From contig DYFM01000001.1 of NCBI GenBank assembly GCA_020725175.1, positions 1,504 to 65,503 on the forward strand: a stretch of 64,000 nt of DNA. Direction: 5' to 3'. The position numbers and the translations under genes were made by a program. Positions 2,813-45,613 of this stretch are shown here, one piece after another (position 1 is the stretch's first letter; each line of letters starts with the position of its first letter). Source of the stretch: Candidatus Paceibacter sp. Its GTDB lineage: Bacteria > Patescibacteriota > Patescibacteriia > Magasanikbacterales > UBA922. A model generated the notes under the pieces. That model saw nothing but the letters and a program-made list of their open reading frames with translations, ran no database searches and had not been told where the DNA came from.

Positions 2813-3202
2813 ATGATGACCGATCCAATCGCAGACATGCTCACTCGAATTCGAAACGCGCAAGCCGCTCGCCTGGCGAGTGTTCAAATTCCTGCTTCCA
2901 AATTGAAAATGGCCATTGCCGGTATTTTGGTAGAAGAAGGATTTTTGACAGCTATGAAAGAGCTCGACGGAACACCAAAAATGCTGGAGTTGTCTTTGAA
3001 GTATGTTGGAAAACAACCGGCTATTCAGTCGATTGCCCGGGAAAGTAAACCTGGTCATCGCTGTTATGTAAAAGCCGATCAGTTACCAAGAATTTTGAAT
3101 GACTATGGTGTGGCTATTGTATCCACTTCAAAAGGATTGATGACAAATAAAAAAGCGCGAAAAGAAGGGATTGGCGGAGAAATTATTTGTTCCGTCTATT
3201 AA
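2813..3202 (+). CDS. rpsH: 30S ribosomal protein S8
   Basis: 129 aa, MMTDPIADMLTRIRNAQAARL... canonical S8 start. Confidence 0.95.
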   Translation: MMTDPIADMLTRIRNAQAARLASVQIPASKLKMAIAGILVEEGFLTAMKELDGTPKMLELSLKYVGKQPAIQSIARESKPGHRCYVKADQLPRILNDYGVAIVSTSKGLMTNKKARKEGIGGEIICSVY

Positions 3203-3233
3203 TCAGTCGCCTAAATATTGTAACGTAAACGCT

Positions 3234-3779
3234 ATGTCTCGTATTGGAAAAAAGACAATTACTATCCCAGCTGGTGTAACGGTTGAGGTTCAAGGAGACC
3301 TCATTCGGGTAAAAGGACCAAAAGGGGAGTTGACCAGAACCGTTTCGCCATTGGTGCAGATTCAGGTTGCGGCCGAAGGAGTAATGGTTGACGTGAAGAA
3401 TAAAGAAGACAAACAAGAACGTTCTTTGTGGGGTACTTTTGGATCTCATGTGACAAATATGGTGCGAGGCGTGACCGAAGGGTTTAAAAAGCAACTTGAG
3501 ATTAATGGTGTTGGATATAAAGCGGCAATGCAAGGAAAAGACCTGAAATTGGATGTTGGATTTTCACATTCGGTTATTTTTCCTCTTCCTAGTGTTGTAT
3601 CCGCACAAGTAGAGAAAAACGTTATTACATTAGAAAGTATTGATAAAGAGTTGTTGGGTGCTACGGCTGCCAAGCTTCGCAGTGTAAGACCACCGGAACC
3701 ATATAAAGGAAAAGGAATTAAGTACTCTGACGAGACAATTCGACGCAAAGCTGGTAAAGCAGCGAAGGCAGCGAAATAA
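3234..3779 (+). CDS. rplF: 50S ribosomal protein L6
   Basis: [33 protein letters not shown]...; start moved to internal ATG 3234 because the upstream ORF extension overlaps rpsH. Confidence 0.9.
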
Positions 3780-5431: not shown

Positions 5432-5470
5432 TTTCCGTGATAGATATGTTGGTGAGTACTGACTCGATCA

Positions 5471-5517
5471 GAAATAACGAAATAACGAAATAAAGAAATA
5501 AAGAAATAAAGAAATAA
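5471..5517. repeat. Tandem heptanucleotide array (CGAAATA/AGAAATA) x ~7 downstream of rplO
   Basis: gaaataacgaaataacgaaataaagaaataaagaaataaagaaataa, read directly in the sequence; preceded by tactgactcga. Confidence 0.85.
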
Positions 5518-5623
5518 GCATTACTTGGACTGGTCAAATGTACGTCTTCTTCTACAGTACACTTATTCTTTTGCGGTTTAAATTGTCTTTCCTGTTTAAT
5601 TTATACCACTACCTCTGATTTCT

Positions 5624-13371: not shown

Positions 13372-14424
13372 ATGAAACGCAAAAAGAGAAAGGTAGTATC
13401 TTCTACCCTCCCCACTGGTTTTTTAGAGAGGCTCGCGATGTTCGTGAGTCCTTCTGTTTTTCGTGAAATGGAAAAACTGTTTGTGGAGCGACCAACGACG
13501 CTTCGGACAAATGGCATTAAAGTAAAAAAACATGAAAGCATGAAAGCAATATTAGGAGAGTTTGGGTTTAAAACGAGGAAAGTTGATTGGTACAAGGATG
13601 CGATGATTTTGGAAAATAGGACGAAACGAGATTTGACCGAAACGAAACCGTATGAAGAGGGAAAGATATATATACAGAGTTTGGCGAGTATGGTACCGCC
13701 ATTGATTCTTGATCCGAAACCAGGCGAAAAAGTGCTGGATCTCACAGCTGCGCCGGGGAGTAAAACATCGCAGATGGCGATGATGATGGAGAAGACCGGT
13801 GAGTTGGTGGCAAATGATAATAATAAAGTGAGGTTTTTTAAATTGAAGCACAATATGGAGTTGTTGGGGGTGGTCGGTGATGCCGACACCCCCCACCACT
13901 CCGGCGGGCAGGCATCCCCAACCTCTCCCCTAAACGGGGAGGGGGGATTGAGTTCTGATTGGAAATTTGTTTTACGGATGGAGCATGGTGCAAAGTTATG
14001 TCGAGAGTATCCGGAATATTTTGATAAGATACTACTTGATGCGCCATGTAGTGCGGAGGCGAGATTTGTGCTTGGTAATCCAAAGACGTTTGGGTATTGG
14101 AGTGAACGAAAAATTAAAGAAATGGCCTATAAACAGCGGCAGTTGCTTTTGGCGGCGTGGGGAGCGCTGAAGCCGGGTGGAGTGCTGGTGTATTCTACTT
14201 GTACCATGGCACCGGAAGAGAATGAGGTACAGATTTCTCGGTTATTGGAACGAAATCCTGATGCAGAAATCGAGAACATTGCAATTCCGGGTTTGAAAGT
14301 CGTCCCACCGGTGTTGACCTGGAAAGAAAAAGCTCTGCATTCTGGTGTAAAGAAAAGTTTGCGGATTATGCCAACGAAGGAAGTGGAGGGATTTTTTGTG
14401 GCAAAAATTCGGAAGAGGAAGTAA
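13372..14424 (+). CDS. RsmB/Sun/NOP2-family rRNA (cytosine-C5)-methyltransferase carrying an in-frame GC-rich palindromic insertion
   Basis: LDLTAAPGSKTSQ (SAM binding), ILLDAPCSAEA (motif IV Cys) and VYSTCTMAPEENE (motif VI Cys); insertion GDADTPHHSGGQASPTSPLNGEGGLSSD encoded by GC-rich 13876-13950. Confidence 0.8.
   Translation: MKRKKRKVVSSTLPTGFLERLAMFVSPSVFREMEKLFVERPTTLRTNGIKVKKHESMKAILGEFGFKTRKVDWYKDAMILENRTKRDLTETKPYEEGKIYIQSLASMVPPLILDPKPGEKVLDLTAAPGSKTSQMAMMMEKTGELVANDNNKVRFFKLKHNMELLGVVGDADTPHHSGGQASPTSPLNGEGGLSSDWKFVLRMEHGAKLCREYPEYFDKILLDAPCSAEARFVLGNPKTFGYWSERKIKEMAYKQRQLLLAAWGALKPGGVLVYSTCTMAPEENEVQISRLLERNPDAEIENIAIPGLKVVPPVLTWKEKALHSGVKKSLRIMPTKEVEGFFVAKIRKRK
13876..13950. 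mobile_element. GC-rich palindromic (REP/RPE-like) element inserted in frame in rsmB-like gene; core ctcccctaaacggggaggggg
   Basis: Local GC far above the ~42% background; hairpin ctcccc-taaac-ggggag; ORF stays open through it. Confidence 0.65.
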
Positions 14425-14437
14425 GAATGATGTTTAT

Positions 14438-15013
14438 ATGAAAAGGAGGAACAGAAAACGTAATCGAAAAAACGGATTTGATTATGCGGTGGATGGTTTT
14501 TATTTTATTACCATTTGTGTGAAAGATCGGATGTAATGTTTAGGACGTATTCATAACGGTCGCATGTGCGTCAATCGATTTGGAACAATTGTTTGGTGGC
14601 AATGGAAATGGTTGGAACGTCAATATTCGTTTGTGCGATTACATGAATTTATCGTGATGCCGAATCATGTGCATGGGGTGGTGGAAATATGTCGTTCATC
14701 CGTTCGTCCGACCGTTGGAATGATAATCGATGCGACGTCAACCGTAGGGAGAGGTCTAGACCTGTCCCTACGGTTGGACGAACCGGCGGTTGAACAAAAA
14801 CCATTGTCATTGTCCAATATCATCGGCGCATTAAAAACCACATCATCAAAATTGATTCATGAACATGGTTTACCGTCATTTCGTTGGCAACGATCATTTT
14901 ACGATGTTATTATCCGTGATCCGCGTGCATTATATGGTATTCAACAGTATATTCGAGAGAATCCATTAAAATGGTGGCGAGATAGAAATAATGAAGAAGG
15001 TATATTTATCTAA
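14438..15013 (+). pseudogene. REP-associated tyrosine transposase (RAYT / IS200-like Y1 HUH transposase) interrupted by in-frame TAA at 14534-14536
   Basis: N-part MKRRNRKRNRKNGFDYAVDGFYFITICVKDRM* matches the RAYT N-terminus; downstream in the same frame ...FIVMPNHVHGVV (HUH) and RWQRSFYDVIIRD...YIRENPLKWW (catalytic Tyr region). A near-perfect 38-bp palindrome (14739-14776), nested in a ~90 bp dyad, is inserted in frame. Confidence 0.6.
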
Positions 15014-15102: not shown

Positions 15103-16941
15103 ATGTCGTATAGAACACATACCTGTGGAGAACTCAGGAAAGAGCATGTTGGTCAGGAGGTAACTATTGCCGGATGGGTGCACAAGCGCCGAGATCTGGG
15201 TGGTTTGGTATTTGTCGATTTGCGTGATCGGTACGGGGTGACACAGGTAGTATTTAACCCCGACGAAATGGCCGATTTTTCTTTGGCGGAAGGGTTGAAA
15301 TATGAATATGTACTTTCGGTGGTAGGTGAAGTAGTGGCTCGAGAAGAAAAGACCGTGAATAAAGATTTGGCTACCGGAGCAGTGGAGTTGCGCGCAAAAC
15401 GATTGGAAATTTTGAGCGCGGCAAAAGCCATGCCGTTTGAAATTTTTGAGACAGGCAAAGGCGAAGAGGATGAAGAACTGCGGTTGAAATATAGATTTTT
15501 GGAATTACGTCGTCAAAAATTGAAAGATAATATTTTGTTTCGAGCAAAAATGGTGGCGCACATTCGAAAATATATGGAAGATCGTGGTTTTATCGATATC
15601 GCGACACCGATTTTAACAGTCAGTTCACCGGAAGGCGCGCGTGATTTTTTGGTCCCTAGTCGATTGCATCAAGGAAAATTTTACGCGTTACCACAAGCCC
15701 CACAGCAGTACAAACAACTCTTGATGGTGGCCGGCTTTGATCGATATTATCAAATTGCGCCGTGTCTGCGTGATGAAGATCCACGGGCAGATCGTTCACC
15801 AGGTGAATTTTATCAGTTGGACTGTGAAACCAGTTTTCTTACGCAAGATGAATTTTTCAACTTGATGGAACCGTTGTTTGTCGAGCTAACAGAACAGGTG
15901 GCCGGAAAAAAAGTGCAGCAAAAACCGTTCCCGAGAATTCCGTATAAAGAGGTGATGGAGACGTATGGCATGGATCGTCCGGATTTGCGCTTTGGTTTGA
16001 AAATAAAAGACATAACTGAATTTGCAAAGACCGTTTCATTTTCTATTTTTCAAGACGCTCCGGTTGTTCGGGCACTGGCTATTCCAGGTGGGGCGACGTT
16101 TACCCGCAAAGAAATTGATGAAGAATTTACTGACGTGGCGAAGCGAGCGCATGCCAAGGGTTTGGCGTGGATGAAGTTTGTGGACGGAAAATTTGATGGT
16201 GGCATTACGAAATTTTTTACTCCGGAACAATTACAGACGTTGAAGGTTCAGTTGGAAGAAACACTAGCTGATTCTCGCGTTCGACCCCTCCCCAATGCTC
16301 CTCTAAAAGGGGAGGGAGACGGTGTCTCTCTCGAGGGAAGTATTGTGTTTTTTGGGGCGGACAGTTGGGAAGTGTCGGCAAAGGCATTGGGAGCGGTACG
16401 AGCACTGGCTGGTGAAAAGTTACAACTAGCTGACCCAAATGAAATTGCCTGGGCATGGGTGGTTGATTTTCCATTTTTTGAGTGGAACGAAGATCAACAA
16501 AAAATTGATTTCGCGCACAATCCGTTTTCTATGCCACAAGGTGGTATGGATGCACTCTTAAATAAAAATCCACTGGATATAGTGGCATTTCAATACGATA
16601 TTATTGCCAATGGATTGGAATTGTCTTCCGGGGCAGTGCGAAATAAAGACGCGGAGATTATGTATAAGGCATTTGAAATTGCCGGGTACGGAAAAGAAGT
16701 GGTTGATCAGAAATTTGGTCATATGATTCGGGCATTTGAATTTGGCGCACCACCTCACTGTGGGTTTGCCCCAGGAATTGAACGTCTAGCCATGCTTTTG
16801 ACTGGAGAAAAAAATATCCGTGCCGTGGTACCATTCCCCAAGAATCAACGAGCCGAAGAACCAATGGTGGGAAGTCCGAGTGAAGTGAGTCGGGAGCAGC
16901 TGAAGGAGCTGGGGATTGATATTAAAAAAAATAATACATAG
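15103..16941 (+). CDS. aspS: Aspartate--tRNA ligase (bacterial type with GAD insertion domain) carrying an in-frame palindromic insertion
   Basis: MSYRTHTCGELRKEHVGQEVTIAGWVHKRRDLGGLVFVDLRDRYG... OB anticodon-binding domain; FYQLDCE, GFAPGIERL class II motifs; ATG 15103 preferred over TTG 15076. Confidence 0.9.
   Translation: MSYRTHTCGELRKEHVGQEVTIAGWVHKRRDLGGLVFVDLRDRYGVTQVVFNPDEMADFSLAEGLKYEYVLSVVGEVVAREEKTVNKDLATGAVELRAKRLEILSAAKAMPFEIFETGKGEEDEELRLKYRFLELRRQKLKDNILFRAKMVAHIRKYMEDRGFIDIATPILTVSSPEGARDFLVPSRLHQGKFYALPQAPQQYKQLLMVAGFDRYYQIAPCLRDEDPRADRSPGEFYQLDCETSFLTQDEFFNLMEPLFVELTEQVAGKKVQQKPFPRIPYKEVMETYGMDRPDLRFGLKIKDITEFAKTVSFSIFQDAPVVRALAIPGGATFTRKEIDEEFTDVAKRAHAKGLAWMKFVDGKFDGGITKFFTPEQLQTLKVQLEETLADSRVRPLPNAPLKGEGDGVSLEGSIVFFGADSWEVSAKALGAVRALAGEKLQLADPNEIAWAWVVDFPFFEWNEDQQKIDFAHNPFSMPQGGMDALLNKNPLDIVAFQYDIIANGLELSSGAVRNKDAEIMYKAFEIAGYGKEVVDQKFGHMIRAFEFGAPPHCGFAPGIERLAMLLTGEKNIRAVVPFPKNQRAEEPMVGSPSEVSREQLKELGIDIKKNNT
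16284..16335. mobile_element. GC-rich palindromic element in frame inside aspS; core ctcctctaaaaggggaggg (same family as the rsmB insert) plus gagacggtgtctc hairpin
   Basis: 14/16 identity of core tcctctaaaaggggag to rsmB core tcccctaaacggggag; encodes RVRPLPNAPLKGEGDGVSLEGS. Confidence 0.65.
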
Positions 16942-23115: not shown

Positions 23116-24174
23116 ATGGATATTCGGAACATATTTCAAAAAAAAATACCGTTGATACGAAACTTCTTTTTTGTTTTTGCATTGGTAGGGCTTTTGGTAG
23201 GTGGTTTTTTCTTCACTTATTTCCACTATACCAAACCTGAACAATTAACGAAGCTATTGTTTAAAGTTGCCAACATTAACGTGGAAGGGCTAGTATTTGA
23301 TCGTTTGGTGGGAGGTGATATTATGATTGCGCCACCGGCACAAGCGGTTCCGGAACTGCCGGAGCTCATCGGAGAATTACCTGCGCCAGAATTGTTTACT
23401 GCTGAGAGAATGTTGGTAAAAGATAAAGAAACCGGGACCATACTGTATGGAAAGAAAGAGTACGAACAATGGCCAATTGCGAGTATTACAAAACTTATGT
23501 CGGCATTGGTGCTGCTCGAATATTCCCCAACCTGGTCTTCTTCAACAGTTGTAATTGGTGAAGATTGGCTGGATGTGCATATGTATAAAGGAGATACGTA
23601 CACGTTTGAACAAATTTGGAATGCTGCCTTGATTGCATCGTCAAATAAAGCTGTCAAAACGTTTGTCCACGCACTTGATATTCCTGAAGAGGTATTTGTG
23701 GCTCGAATGAATGAAAAAGCAAAGGAGCTTGGCATGACTGATACGGTTTTTTTTGAAACCAGTGGACTTGATCAGCGAAATGTTTCCACTGCTTCTGATA
23801 TCGTGCTACTCTTACAAGCTGCTCTAGAAGAGGAAAAAATTCAAAAAACCTTACTTACCAGAGAATACCGTTTGTATTCAAAAGAAAGAAAAAAAGGTCA
23901 TCACATGTGGAACACAAATTGGTTACTGTTGGGTTGGATTCCAAACACCTTTCCAAAAATCAATGGAGGAAAAACAGGGTTTATCGAAGCGGCACAATAT
24001 AATCTAGTGATTGAGATTGAAGATGAAAAAGGAAGGGTTTTGGATGTGGTCATTTTGGGGGCAGAAAGTAATGAGAGCCGTTTTACCGAAGCAAGAGATG
24101 TGGCCGAGGCGGTATTAAAACAGTATCGTTGGCCGAAGGATGAGATTGTTGTTGAGGATGAAATAACCGATTAA
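23116..24174 (+). CDS. D-alanyl-D-alanine carboxypeptidase (PBP5/6-like, peptidase S11) with N-terminal membrane anchor
   Basis: SxxK (ASITK), SxN (SSNKAV) and KTG (GGKTGF) active-site motifs; start at internal ATG 23116 to avoid overlap with scpB. Confidence 0.75.
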   Translation: MDIRNIFQKKIPLIRNFFFVFALVGLLVGGFFFTYFHYTKPEQLTKLLFKVANINVEGLVFDRLVGGDIMIAPPAQAVPELPELIGELPAPELFTAERMLVKDKETGTILYGKKEYEQWPIASITKLMSALVLLEYSPTWSSSTVVIGEDWLDVHMYKGDTYTFEQIWNAALIASSNKAVKTFVHALDIPEEVFVARMNEKAKELGMTDTVFFETSGLDQRNVSTASDIVLLLQAALEEEKIQKTLLTREYRLYSKERKKGHHMWNTNWLLLGWIPNTFPKINGGKTGFIEAAQYNLVIEIEDEKGRVLDVVILGAESNESRFTEARDVAEAVLKQYRWPKDEIVVEDEITD

Positions 24175-24195
24175 AGAAATATAGAAATAACTCCA

Positions 24196-24260
24196 CCCCC
24201 ACCCGAGGCGGGTAAACAAGGTGGGTAAACAAGGCTGACAGGTAAGGCGGACACGTGCGT
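24196..24260. repeat. Intergenic GC-rich patch with cccgaggcgg core and tandem gggtaaacaag x2
   Basis: ...cacccgaggcgggtaaacaaggtgggtaaacaagg...; core shared with the elements at 40821, 40989, 41114 and in recG. Confidence 0.5.
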
Positions 24261-27183: not shown

Positions 27184-28044
27184 ATGGCACTCGGCAAAGG
27201 TCTCAATTCACTTATTCCGCAAAAGAAGACGGCGACAGCTGTTCTTGATAAACCAACTACTAAAAAGCCGGATGGCGAACGGGTGTGGCAGATTCCTATT
27301 TCTGAAATTGTGCCAAATCCGGAACAGCCACGAAAGCATTTCAATCATCAGGATTTGGAAGATTTAATTGCTTCGATTAAAAAACACGGTATCATGCAGC
27401 CATTGACCGTTACGGAACGGGCAGATGGGGGATATGAACTCATTGCCGGAGAGCGTCGATTGAGGGCTTCTCAAATGGCTGGACTTGTGACTGTGCCGGC
27501 ACTGGTGCGAGGTGCGACACAGCAAGAAAAGCTTGAACTGGCGCTGATTGAAAATATTCAACGCCAAGAACTAAATGCTATTGAAGAAGCGTTTGCTTTT
27601 CAGCGTTTGATCGATGAATTTGGTTTGACGCAGCAAGAGGTTGCCGATCAAGTGGGAAAGAGTCGTCCTCAGGTAGCAAACACGATTCGATTGCTCAGTT
27701 TGCCAGACCGAGTTCAAAAAGCCTTGGTAGATGGAGTGATTACCATGGGAAAAGCTCGCGCCCTCTTGAGTTTGAAAGATGAACAGGAACTTTTAGATGT
27801 GTTTGAAGAAATGGTTGGACAACAGGTAACAGTACGAGATGTAGAAAAGACAGTCGCACAAAAAGGTGTTCGTTCTCGAAAAGGTTCTGTACGAAGAGAT
27901 CCGAATCTTCTTGCTCAAGAACAGCTTTTGGAAGATAGACTGGGAGCCAAAGTGCATATCTCTCAAAAAGGGGAACGAGGGACAATTACGATTGAGTATC
28001 ATTCGAAAGAAGAGTTGAAACGGATTATGGAGGAGATAATTTGA
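27184..28044 (+). CDS. parB: Chromosome partitioning protein ParB (Spo0J)
   Basis: ...IVPNPEQPRKHFNHQDLEDLIASIKKHGIMQPLTV...IAGERRLRAS... ParB box motifs. Confidence 0.9.
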   Translation: MALGKGLNSLIPQKKTATAVLDKPTTKKPDGERVWQIPISEIVPNPEQPRKHFNHQDLEDLIASIKKHGIMQPLTVTERADGGYELIAGERRLRASQMAGLVTVPALVRGATQQEKLELALIENIQRQELNAIEEAFAFQRLIDEFGLTQQEVADQVGKSRPQVANTIRLLSLPDRVQKALVDGVITMGKARALLSLKDEQELLDVFEEMVGQQVTVRDVEKTVAQKGVRSRKGSVRRDPNLLAQEQLLEDRLGAKVHISQKGERGTITIEYHSKEELKRIMEEII

Positions 28045-28050
28045 CATACT

Positions 28051-28108
28051 CGAAATATCGAAATAACGAAATAGCGAAATAAAGAAATGAAGAAATAACG
28101 AAATACAA
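28051..28108. repeat. Tandem heptanucleotide array (CGAAATA-like x ~8) downstream of parB; same family as 5471-5517
   Basis: cgaaatatcgaaataacgaaatagcgaaataaagaaatgaagaaataacgaaatac, preceded by catactcga. Confidence 0.85.
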
Positions 28109-28153
28109 AATAGTAAAGTTTACTTTTAAGAACTTTTATTCACCTGAAAAAAT

Positions 28154-40733: not shown

Positions 40734-40808
40734 GCTCTCGTCGTTCAATGGATAGGACATGGGTTTGCGGAACCCAAGATCTAAGTTCGATTCTTAGCGA
40801 GAGCACCA
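40734..40808 (+). tRNA. tRNA-Arg (anticodon GCG) with encoded CCA
   Basis: GCTCTCG-TC-GTTC-AATGGATA-GGAC-A-TGGGT-TTGCGGA-ACCCA-AGAT-CTAAG-TTCGATT-CTTAG-CGAGAGC-A-CCA; 7-bp acceptor, U8, GG in D-loop, U33, purine 37, TTC in T-loop, A58. Confidence 0.75.
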
Positions 40809-41160
40809 ATAGAAGAGTCGTTTCCGCCCGAGGCGGACCCGCCTTGGGCGGGCAATGGATAGGACATGGGTTTGCGGAACCCAAGATCTAAGTTCGATTC
40901 TTAGCAGGTGCACAGTGTATAGGTGTTGGTTTGTCGGGTCATCCGACCCGATCGGGTTGAATAACCCGACGGAACCCAAGATCTAAGTTCTCCTCCCGAG
41001 GCGGATCCGTCCTGGGCGGAGATTCTTAGCAGGTGCACAGTGTATAGGTGTTGGTTTGTCGGGTCATCCGACCCGATCGGGTTGAATAACCCGACGGAAC
41101 CCAAGATCTAAGTTCTCCTCCCGAGGCGGATCCGTCCTGGGCGGAGATTCTTAGCGAGAG
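40809..41160 (+). repeat. Composite tandem array: partial tRNA-Arg copies (D-loop-to-T-arm, then anticodon-stem-to-T-arm x2), each later unit split inside the T-loop by a 30-bp GC-rich palindrome, separated by an identical 65-bp palindromic spacer; ends with a duplicate of the tRNA 3' acceptor strand
   Basis: ggaacccaagatctaagttc...gattcttagc recurs at 40770, 40877, 40972, 41097; 125-bp unit 40906-41030 is repeated exactly at 41031-41155; palindromes ccgcccgaggcggacccgccttgggcggg (40824) and tcctcccgaggcggatccgtcctgggcgga (40989, 41114); final cttagcgagagcac repeats the tRNA 3' end. Confidence 0.8.
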
Positions 41161-43411: not shown

Positions 43412-45613
43412 ATGAAGCTCACCACCAAAGTCAGTCAACTAAATCGCGTGGGGGAAGTGCTTGCTCGGCGATTGAAGCATCTCGGAATTGAAACCGTAGA
43501 GGATTTGTTATTTTACTATCCATTTCGATATGAAGATTTCAGTCAAAGCGAACAGATAAAAAAATTGAAAGAAGGAGAACAGGTGACGGTACGAGGAAAG
43601 GTGGAACTTATCGCCAATAAACGGAGTCCTCGAAAAGGAAAAATTATTACCGAAGCGGTGGTGGCTGATGACGCGGATCGGTTGCGGGTGGTGTGGTTTG
43701 GTCAGCCGTTTATCGCAAAAACAATTCATGTTGGAGATACGGTTTTTTTGTCCGGAAAAGTCTCTCGAGATATGTTTGGGCTGGTCATGAAATCACCGAG
43801 TTATGAAAAAGAAAAGAAACTTGCAAAACAGCACCTTGAAGATATTTCTTCACAGCAAAAAGATGGCGATATTGAACAGACGCACACTGGAAGGTTGGTG
43901 CCGATCTATTCTTTGACTGCCGGGATCACTCAAAAACAGCTACGTTTTTTGATTAGTCAGGTAATTTCACTCTCGTCAACACTGGAAGAATGGTTGCCGG
44001 TAGAAATATTGGAAGGGGCGGACTTGATACCAATTCAGGACGCGGTGAAAGCCATTCATTTTCCCGAAGATCGGACCGATTTGCAGCAGGCAAAAAAACG
44101 GTTGAAATTTGATGAACTATTTATTCTTCAGCTTCGGGCTGAAATGATCCGTCAGTCGATCAAACGCGAAGAAGCGCCGAAACTGGTATTTCAAGAAACA
44201 TTGATCAAAGAATTTGTTCAAAGACTACCGTTTACGTTGACCAATGCACAAAAGATTGCCACCTGGGAAATTTTACAAGATATTCAAAAATCGGAACCGA
44301 TGAACCGTTTGCTCGAAGGTGATGTGGGAAGCGGAAAAACGGTGGTGGCAGCGATGTGTCTGTATAACGCGGTGTTAAACGGGTATCAGGGAGTTTTGAT
44401 GGCACCAACGGAGATACTCGCGAAACAGCATTTTGAATCTATTGTTAGTTTGTTGGGAGAAGCATGTGCTGTCGCGTTGTTGACTGGTTCTGAAACTGGA
44501 AATTGTCAGCCCAAGGCTGATCCGCCTCGGGCGGAGAAATTGGAAATTGGGGAAAAAACAAAAAAGGGGAAAAGAGCGGAATTGTTGAAGTTTGTAAAAA
44601 ACGGAACAGCGAACATTATTGTTGGTACCCATGCGTTGTTGGTGGATGAGGTGAAGTTTAAACAGTTGGGATTGGTGATTGTGGATGAGCAGCATCGTTT
44701 TGGAGTAGAACAGCGAAAAACAATCCGCGAGAAGTCCGGGGTTGGTGGAATGACACCGCATTTCTTGAGCATGACGGCGACTCCAATTCCGCGTTCATTT
44801 GCGCTGACGCTCTACGGCGATTTAGATTTATCAATTATCAATCAAATGCCGGCCAATCGAAAGCCTATTCAGACACGACTCGTTGATCCGCATCAACGGG
44901 AGAAAGCCTATGGATTTATTCGATCTCAAGTGAAAGAAGGGAGGCAGGTATTTGTGATTTGTCCGTTGATTAGCAAGGAACAAGGAACAAGGAACAAGGA
45001 ACAAGATGTTGAGCCATCGCGTTTACTATCTTTGCAGGATGAGAGAAAGACCGTGATGGAGGAATATGAAAAATTGAAAAATCATGTTTTTCCGGATTTG
45101 CGTGTGGGGTATTTGCACGGGAAAATGAAATCGGCGGAGAAAGATGTGATGATGAAGCAGTTTGCGGCCGGAGAGATTGATATTTTGGTGTCGACGTCGG
45201 TGGTTGAGGTTGGGGTAAATATTCCAAATGCCTCGGTCATGATGATTGAGGGGGCGGAGCGTTTTGGACTCGCGCAGTTGCATCAGTTTCGGGGGCGAGT
45301 AGGGCGAAGCGAGTATCAGTCGTATTGCTTTTTGTTTACCGAAAGTCAGTCGGACAGCTCGCGAGGGAGACTGGAATTTTTTGAAAAAACTCTTGATGGT
45401 TTCAAACTGGCTGAATATGATCTCAATACGCGAGGTCCCGGAGAAGTCTATGGTACGTCCCAAAGTGGCCTCATGAATTTTCGGTTGGCAAGTATGAAGG
45501 ATACTGCTATAATCAAACTGGCCCGAGATACGGCCCGGGGAATTGATTTTGAAAAATACCCGTTACTTAAGGAAAAAGTAAAAGAATGGGAGGGGAGAGT
45601 ACATTTGGAATGA
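43412..45613 (+). CDS. recG: ATP-dependent DNA helicase RecG, with two in-frame insertions (palindromic element; heptamer repeat)
   Basis: Wedge/OB N-terminus, helicase motifs GDVGSGKT (I), DEQHRFG (II), TATPIPRS, QFRGRVGR (VI). Confidence 0.9.
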   Translation: MKLTTKVSQLNRVGEVLARRLKHLGIETVEDLLFYYPFRYEDFSQSEQIKKLKEGEQVTVRGKVELIANKRSPRKGKIITEAVVADDADRLRVVWFGQPFIAKTIHVGDTVFLSGKVSRDMFGLVMKSPSYEKEKKLAKQHLEDISSQQKDGDIEQTHTGRLVPIYSLTAGITQKQLRFLISQVISLSSTLEEWLPVEILEGADLIPIQDAVKAIHFPEDRTDLQQAKKRLKFDELFILQLRAEMIRQSIKREEAPKLVFQETLIKEFVQRLPFTLTNAQKIATWEILQDIQKSEPMNRLLEGDVGSGKTVVAAMCLYNAVLNGYQGVLMAPTEILAKQHFESIVSLLGEACAVALLTGSETGNCQPKADPPRAEKLEIGEKTKKGKRAELLKFVKNGTANIIVGTHALLVDEVKFKQLGLVIVDEQHRFGVEQRKTIREKSGVGGMTPHFLSMTATPIPRSFALTLYGDLDLSIINQMPANRKPIQTRLVDPHQREKAYGFIRSQVKEGRQVFVICPLISKEQGTRNKEQDVEPSRLLSLQDERKTVMEEYEKLKNHVFPDLRVGYLHGKMKSAEKDVMMKQFAAGEIDILVSTSVVEVGVNIPNASVMMIEGAERFGLAQLHQFRGRVGRSEYQSYCFLFTESQSDSSRGRLEFFEKTLDGFKLAEYDLNTRGPGEVYGTSQSGLMNFRLASMKDTAIIKLARDTARGIDFEKYPLLKEKVKEWEGRVHLE
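44510..44536. mobile_element. GC-rich palindromic element in frame inside recG (cccaaggctgatccgcctcgggcggag); reverse complement matches the 40824 element
   Basis: rc ctccgcccgaggcggatcagccttggg vs 40821 tccgcccgaggcggacccgccttgggcggg; encodes ...CQPKADPPRAEK... in an insertion absent from typical RecG. Confidence 0.65.
44974..45005 (+). repeat. (CAAGGAA)x4 heptanucleotide tandem repeat inside recG coding sequence
   Basis: caaggaacaaggaacaaggaacaaggaacaag encoding KEQGTRNKEQ in a loop insertion. Confidence 0.9.

Follow-up and report, generated by a model that had tools for sequence, protein, structure and literature searches.

Palindromic repeats that lie in frame inside protein-coding genes have been described in several settings. 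Repetitive extragenic palindromic (REP) sequences are G+C-rich stem-loops of 20–40 nt, mostly intergenic and often arranged as inverted dimers; some of their copies reside in frame inside housekeeping genes, tRNA synthetase genes included, and recB is reported to contain different REPs at roughly one position (Di Nocera et al. 2013, PMC3733652). Rickettsia palindromic elements (RPEs) are selfish repeats that occupy in-frame positions within unrelated essential genes of a host whose genome is reduced; they are translated and fold-compatible, span ~100–150 bp, encode a conserved peptide and carry a CGTC tag (PMC10969869 and references cited there). Here we describe a short repeat in a 64-kb stretch of contig DYFM01000001.1 (64,000 nucleotides; the whole stretch is hereafter called the window), which comes from a member of Patescibacteria (candidate phyla radiation, CPR) close to Candidatus Magasanikbacteria. 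One copy lies in aspS, the gene for aspartate–tRNA ligase (AspRS), and another in an rsmB/F-like gene for an RNA m5C methyltransferase (rsmB below). We classify the element as an in-frame palindromic repeat insertion, a kind already known from Rickettsia and some Proteobacteria and found here in a CPR bacterium. The aspS segment is probably a short dispersed DNA repeat in slightly decayed form, a REP-like selfish passenger in a permissive loop.

The element resembles the intragenic REPs in being a short G+C-rich hairpin repeat with in-frame copies in tRNA synthetase genes and a recurrent insertion site. Unlike REPs, it has no GTAG or CGTC tag (neither is present at either end in any of 15 DNA-verified copies), its C-rich box directly repeats the left arm of the hairpin, and its host belongs to the CPR. 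With RPEs it shares the in-frame insertion into a functional open reading frame (ORF) at a fold-compatible position (AspRS scores as an equivalog), whereas its core spans only ~35 nt (42–132 nt with extra sequence), is read in two frames and lacks the CGTC tag. The likeness to systems of REP doublets and REP-associated tyrosine transposases (REPIN/RAYT) consists in the hairpin repeats, in inverted doublets in locus L008 and in metagenome contigs, and in the Y1 transposase gene nearby in the window. However, unlike REPINs, the aspS and rsmB copies of the window are single, doublets occurring only elsewhere (rsmB of L008 and metagenome loci), and, unlike in a REPtron, no transposase gene is closely flanked by inverted copies of the element. 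Miniature inverted-repeat transposable elements differ in their terminal inverted repeats of 15–30 bp, the arms being 6–8 bp here, and no clear target-site duplication accompanies the element. The small dispersed repeats of cyanobacteria, mobile repeats of ~20–30 nt that also occur inside genes and other repeats, are similar in size and in-gene location but different in sequence and host.

The locus extends the in-frame colonization of essential genes by tiny palindromic repeats to the ultra-small CPR/Patescibacteria, with the GAD domain of AspRS, a loop of RsmB/F and PheRS-beta serving as sites where such repeats land again and again. Genome annotators gain an explanation for unusual Pro/Gly-rich insertions and variable lengths among CPR housekeeping proteins, as well as for contig breaks at palindromes. 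For research on mobile DNA, it offers filled and empty sites as they occur in nature, together with an apparent hairpin replacement, useful for tracing the copying of untagged hairpins.

Repeat copies in aspS and rsmB

The aspS gene (15103..16941, forward strand) encodes an intact protein of 612 residues, which matches NCBIfam NF001750 with 766 bits (cut-off 443) and the Pfam domains tRNA_anti-codon, tRNA-synt_2 and GAD. The initial annotation, made from the letters alone, had placed an in-frame insertion in the GAD domain, and the profile data bear this out: alignments with the AspRS profile and with Thermus AspRS are interrupted at residues 378–412 (Thermus residues 374–384), the Pfam GAD match ends at residue 384, and a gap lies opposite the insertion in the Thermus and Escherichia coli AspRS structures. 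Alignment with orthologs delimits it as 69 nt (16267..16335, forward strand; AspRS A389–E411), with edges uncertain by ~4 codons. The segment encodes ...RVRPLPNAPLKGEGDGVSLEGS... and the reading frame of aspS is unbroken, so that the element is translated within an otherwise intact AspRS. In the AlphaFold2 model (mean predicted local distance difference test score, pLDDT, of 81), residues 395–406, the part encoded by the element, form a coil with pLDDT <50 between the confidently modeled helix 374–390 and strand 413–420; a disordered surface loop is therefore predicted.

Within the insertion, the repeat copy itself occupies 16284..16318 (forward strand) and fits the consensus derived from copies in loci L003 and L008–L012, with one T.G mismatch in the stem. 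It consists of an A, the C-box CCCCTCCCC (16285–16293), AATG, the left arm CTCCTC (16298–16303), the loop TAAAA (16304–16308), the right arm GGGGAG (16309–16314) and GGAG. The remaining ~34 nt of the insertion are extra sequence. The second hairpin proposed earlier, GAGAC-GGT-GTCTC (16316..16328, forward strand), is indeed present, but it is not conserved in other carriers, and hairpins with 5-bp stems and 3-nt loops occur at chance level (69 in the window versus 71 in shuffles).

The second copy, ATCCCC-AAC-CT-CTCCCC-TAAAC-GGGGAG-G-GGGGAT (13914..13948, forward strand), occupies a hypervariable rsmB loop, also in frame. The gene (13372..14424, forward strand) matches Pfam Methyltr_RsmB-F and Methyltr_RsmF_N, the match being split in two by the insertion, which breaks the profile alignment at methyltransferase residues 170–212 (170–184 of the Pyrococcus enzyme). 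The aspS core TCCTCTAAAAGGGGAG (16299–16314) differs from the rsmB core TCCCCTAAACGGGGAG (13926–13941) at 2 of 16 positions. These are the only matches to the core at up to two mismatches in the 64 kb, with 0.01 expected from shuffles, and the likeness survives alignment over ~33 nt with one gap (TCCCCAA..CTCCyCTAAAmGGGGAGGG); the proposal that both belong to one palindromic family thus holds. Both copies are slightly degenerate, and neither is followed by a T-run as expected of an intrinsic terminator. The rsmB insertion contains an additional imperfect hairpin, GGGGGTGGTCGG-TGAT-GCCGACACCCCCC (13866..13894, forward strand; inverted repeat I11), whose left arm is native rsmB coding sequence and which is missing from the sister genome described below. 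No Rfam 15 family reached the gathering score in the eight loci searched; a candidate ncS16 match at the rsmB insertion (25.7 bits versus 48) was rejected, as it rests on an unrelated hairpin plus a U-run.

Distribution of the insertion and of the repeat

To place the aspS insertion phylogenetically, we used the best 120 AspRS homologs, a neighbor-joining tree and Fitch parsimony for gains and losses. The window AspRS is identical to database protein P0001 (Joint Genome Institute, JGI, sample 3300029893, contig Ga0246236_1000030), and its closest named relatives are Magasanikbacteria metagenome-assembled genomes (70–76% identity). An exact 23-residue gap opposite the insertion is found in 113 of the 120 homologs, all 113 empty sites being of the same length, while seven carry an insertion in the same loop. 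In a sister genome (sample SRR32675155; contigs L135 and L007) the genes follow the same rsmB–transposase–aspS order and AspRS is 89–91% identical to that of the window, yet the aspS site is empty, as are those of L001, L002, L004, L005 and L006. Every well-placed carrier has an insertion-free protein as its nearest relative: the pairs are P0001 of the window and P0002 (91%), P0005 and P0066 (87%), P0060 and P0099 (82%), and P0091 and P0104 (82%), whereas carriers share only 67–75% AspRS identity among themselves. The seven carriers are scattered over the tree and require seven gains, compared with 25 losses under a loss-only history. The insertion is thus missing from both distant and close AspRS, and these alignments show a gain that followed divergence from the sister lineage or, at the minimum, an insertion that is not ancestral. 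Transfer of a filled aspS allele by recombination was considered and found unlikely, because carriers are not more alike around the site. A similar tail behind the hairpin in five carriers was likewise dismissed as a sign of shared descent; upon realignment it is probably native, equivalent to xPEE/xVGD of the empty orthologs.

The empty site reads TCAGTCGGA|GACGGGAGT in the sister. Its G/A-rich sequence (sister, GGAGACGGGAGT; L002, GAAGAGGGGAGT) is similar to the right arm of the element, which makes the insertion junction ambiguous; microhomology at this purine-rich site could have contributed to the insertion. The only feature common to the left flanks of the copies is a purine followed by A.

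All seven aspS insertions, although defined by protein alignment alone, contain a C-box and a C/G hairpin. The consensus is A-CCCCTCCCC-AAY-CCTCCCC-TnnnA-GGGGAGG-GAG, that is, an A, the C-rich box, AAY, a C-rich arm of 7–8 bp repeating the box, a loop of ~5 nt (first letter usually T, last letter A), the G-rich arm (GGGGAGG) and GAG. The whole module measures ~35 nt, with a spacer of 2–4 nt and a C/G stem of 6–8 bp. Across carriers the aspS insertions range from 42 to 132 nt, the extra sequence outside the core varying in both length and content. Stems occur as CCTCCCC/GGGGAGG, TCCCCCC/GGGGGGA (L010), CTCCCCC/GGGGGAG (L011) and CCTCTCTC/GAGAGAGG (L012). Translation of the rsmB copy in L003 gives SPTRGGR, that of most other copies PPLxGEG. 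The C-box comes first in all 13 DNA-verified coding copies; nevertheless, we dropped orientation bias as an argument, since intergenic copies in L134, the second L008 unit and SPYxGE.EGV-type peptides in rsmB loops indicate that the opposite orientation occurs. The antisense strand of the C-box plus left arm (e.g. L008 6174–6212) reads GGGGAGGGTTGGGGAGGGGT, with four G-runs, a putative G-quadruplex-type motif that would compete with the hairpin.

The rsmB loop (window 13858–13960) could be delimited in 103 of the orthologs P0241–P0360 and is short in 52 of them and expanded in 51. P.PPL.GEG is present in six expanded loops, and Pro/Gly hairpin-type peptides in at least 23; others hold palindrome-type peptides of unrelated kinds (HCEE..DEAIQ..ARND, SRLRGND) or insertions that are simply of low complexity, so that at least three peptide types are represented overall. 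The rsmB site of L009 is empty. Such varied and unrelated insertions in a single loop argue for a permissive-site filter and not for sequence-specific targeting.

Copies are also found outside these two genes. Intergenic copies are present in L009 (one, at 2154–2185, with a T-run behind it and terminator-like), L010 (two) and L134 (four). L134 belongs to the same contig upstream of the window, and its four related copies lie in both orientations within the next 8 kb. Two of them (494–530 and 984–1020, ~7 kb upstream of the window start) are direct copies of a unit composed of the hairpin, a G-box and TCnTTCAGyGrCA, and flank a gene for a DUF559 (Vsr-like) endonuclease (562–957); two further related hairpins lie at 1097–1140 and 3214–3250. 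On metagenome contig L066 (38% GC), pheT carries the element in frame (YTPLPNPPLKGEGEEQ); this PheRS beta-subunit gene (~340–1300) also has a second hairpin-type insertion (SPLQGEGLGVRS...TPQEGN). No copy was detected in ~49 kb of loci with an empty aspS site.

A scan of metagenome contigs with the exact 26-nt pattern CCCCAAYCCTCCCCTNNNNGGGGAGG returned at least 120 stretches. Among the matches listed (L013–L132), most (~100 contigs, 41–74% GC) have the near-identical 40-mer ACCCCATCCCCACCCCAACCCTCCCCTTGAAGGGGAGGGAG, often with an inverted partner upstream and recurring 3' flanks (e.g. GGGTTTTTCAGCGGAAGATCAGCGCTAATCAGG). In L026 (613–780) and L085 (8991–9150) three hairpin units are spaced at 67 nt with unrelated spacers, a geometry reminiscent of CRISPR; Tandem Repeats Finder reported nothing for these triplets. 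A plasmid BLAST search with the metagenome doublet gave only unannotated matches in Rahnella and Sphingomonas plasmids, and a full-text search of a literature library with the DNA core and the encoded peptides found no match.

Copying of the repeat and alternative origins

The presence of the element in several genes and in intergenic DNA, in different frames and with co-varying stems, indicates that DNA is copied and not a peptide motif. In the reading we favor, the repeat would be a selfish element of REP-like, non-autonomous type that depends on copying in trans; a single-stranded hairpin handled by an HUH/Y1-type enzyme, or else replication-associated copying, is the probable route. Within essential genes, copies would survive only where the frame is kept and the loop is permissive, so that the same aspS and rsmB loops would be colonized repeatedly in different Magasanikbacteria. 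Such a permissive-site filter is the likeliest cause of the recurrence at the same loops. In AspRS the element would add a Pro/Gly-rich loop, and its most likely status there is that of a neutral passenger.

The rsmB site may record a recent event. In the sister (L135 5005–5050) it contains CCCCTCC-TTCGCAA-GGAGGGG, whereas in the window (13866–13950) it contains CTCCCC-TAAAC-GGGGAG plus 33 extra bases upstream. Since these different hairpins stand on a common 3' flank (GGGGGGATTGA), the comparison implies that a hairpin was apparently replaced at an already occupied site. The new rsmB variant of the window matches the variant in its aspS. Copies within a genome are 31–34/35 identical in L003 and L008, compared with 28–31/35 between orthologous copies, a suggestive difference.

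Several observations weigh against the reading of a copied selfish repeat or limit the figures that favor it. Within L003 (TACGA) and within L008 (TCATA) the rsmB and aspS copies have identical loops, and those of the window (TAAAC/TAAAA) are 1 nt apart, but loops are drawn from a small repertoire, mostly TA[AC][AG]A, so that this sharing is a suggestive rather than decisive sign of recent copying, less telling than the comparison with the sister. In 16 distinct copies 95% of stem cells pair and 6 of 8 pairs change on both sides, matched by none of 500 shuffles; however, most of these copies (those outside aspS) came from a scan that required complementarity, which biases the test. Core identity among carriers is 0.79 versus 0.42 at flanking third codon positions, with the similarity of copies inflated by C/G low complexity, which leaves the core-conservation and loop-sharing statistics only moderately strong. 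The sister and the distant L011 have an identical hairpin and loop in rsmB, which could instead mean long retention under constraint. Folded as single-stranded DNA, the aspS and rsmB insertions show no excess stability over shuffles (z-scores –0.39 and +0.12), and hairpin strength in the window is therefore not evidence in itself. The 64-kb window holds only two copies. The comparison of flanking targets suggested earlier yielded no target-site duplication, shared tetranucleotide or target word, either between the filled and empty sites of window and sister or among carrier flanks, and no transposition event was identified.

If, instead, one ancient insertion each in aspS and rsmB had been followed by many precise deletions, with gene conversion homogenizing the loops within a genome, then the location of every aspS insertion in the same loop, the shared hairpin and loop of L011 and the sister, and the within-genome loop identity would be accounted for, hairpins being known promoters of deletion. 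We regard this as unlikely, because it takes ~25 independent losses in place of seven gains, all 113 empty sites are equal in length, the sequence outside the core differs between carriers (42–132 nt), and unconstrained DNA would not keep 79% identity while flanking third positions stand at 42%. That conservation, together with the compensatory changes in the stems, the recurrence of the loop in seven lineages and the terminator-like intergenic copy of L009 (2154–2185), could also be read as co-option of the hairpin, either as a structure in the mRNA by which translation is slowed at the boundary of a domain or mRNA stability is altered, or as a useful peptide loop of AspRS. With 113 of 120 close orthologs lacking the insertion, a weakened stem and unexceptional folding energy in the window, a peptide, predicted to be disordered, that differs among frames and lineages, and an rsmB loop that takes unrelated insertions, co-option here seems very doubtful. 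A purely local origin, in which purine-rich native sequence expanded through slippage or template switching and no mobile element took part, would fit the G/A-rich empty site, which is like the right arm, and the C-rich stretch inserted in rsmB, which is complementary to neighboring native codons (I11). Local processes are, however, not expected to converge on the same 26–35 nt with C-box and spacer in unrelated genes, intergenic DNA and at least 120 metagenome contigs, and we consider this origin highly improbable.

There remains the arrangement proposed in the initial annotation, in which the two copies flank a RAYT pseudogene that mobilized them, so that rsmB–RAYT–aspS would form a REPtron-like unit of REP/REPIN hairpins. 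An IS200-like Y1 (HUH), RAYT-like transposase pseudogene (14438..15013, forward strand) does lie between the copies, hairpin DNA is a known substrate of RAYTs (PMC3733652), the element forms inverted doublets in rsmB of L008 and in many metagenome loci, and the lineage that gained the aspS copy after the sister split is one with a transposase gene. The match to Pfam Y1_Tnp reaches 26.9 bits (threshold 23) with the HVH motif present, and some homologs are named RayT by JGI, but the score for NCBIfam NF047646 (REP_Tyr_transpos), 46.8 bits, falls short of the cut-off of 80. The ORF is interrupted by a lone in-frame TAA (14534–14536) where the sister has CAA, which points to a recent pseudogene. 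Each repeat copy is a lone unit inside another gene; the two are directly oriented, one lying 0.5 kb upstream of the ORF and the other 1.3 kb downstream. In L003 and L008 both the rsmB and aspS loops are filled with no transposase gene between rsmB and aspS, while the sister combines an intact transposase ORF with an empty aspS site. With a profile (hidden Markov model) search, no more than 2 of the 120 metagenome hairpin loci listed, and no Magasanikbacteria carrier locus, proved to have a Y1 ORF, and tblastn likewise showed hardly any co-location of the transposase with hairpins; since enzymes of this sort work in trans, such evidence is weak.

Besides, the transposase family has a conserved palindrome of its own, with the tag that the repeat lacks. 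Inside the transposase ORF lies a near-perfect 38-nt palindrome (14739..14776, forward strand; fold z-score –5.66) containing GTAGGGAGAGGTCTAGACCTGTCCCTAC (14744–14771). It has GTAG/CTAC ends, is unique in the window (0.01 expected) and is the only GTAG-tagged palindrome there. Patescibacteria homologs of the transposase keep it in two frames (VGTGRDLSL or CRDRSRPVPT), sometimes in tandem, in a hypervariable middle region. If the transposase has a cognate hairpin, this palindrome is a better candidate than the C-box element. Taken together, these data render the REPtron-like arrangement quite unlikely, and we infer that the adjacent pseudogene is not specifically implicated; mobilization of the selfish repeat in trans by some Y1 enzyme is possible. 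A broader proposal, which we rate as tentative and on balance rather unlikely, is that the hairpins belong to a widespread untagged 'C-box + hairpin' superfamily, extending from Patescibacteria to Proteobacteria, that in CPR repeatedly targets the same essential-gene loops and replaces hairpins at occupied sites. If true, this would imply that an enzyme directs copying or conversion to particular sites, and the putative G-quadruplex motif of the antisense strand could be a structural link.

Further features of the locus

The window has a low GC content (~0.42) and a positive GC skew throughout. Along it, the rsmB/F-like gene is followed by the Y1 transposase pseudogene and then by aspS. In the sister, the assembly break falls exactly at a perfect palindrome, GTAGGGACAGGTCTAGACCTGTCCCTAC, in the transposase ORF, matching the GTAG-tagged palindrome of the window; L135 5529–5826 and L007 1–306 join into the intact ORF, which has an extra 42-nt hairpin insertion (L007 about 28–75, TSGGLGERSSPQRF).

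A second family of G+C-rich palindromes (TCCKCCCGAGGCGGA / CCCGCCTTGGGCGGG) is associated with tRNA sequences. A tRNA-Arg(GCG) followed by partial tRNA copies is located at window positions 40734–41145 and 44506–44535, and it is the T-arm of the partial copies that is interrupted by these palindromes. A perfect tandem duplication of 125 nt is also present (40896–41145). Finally, 8-nt tandem repeats (GAAATAAC/GAAATAAA) recur between genes, at 5455–5540, 24144–24197 and 28036–28121 of the window and at 3100–3210 of L134.

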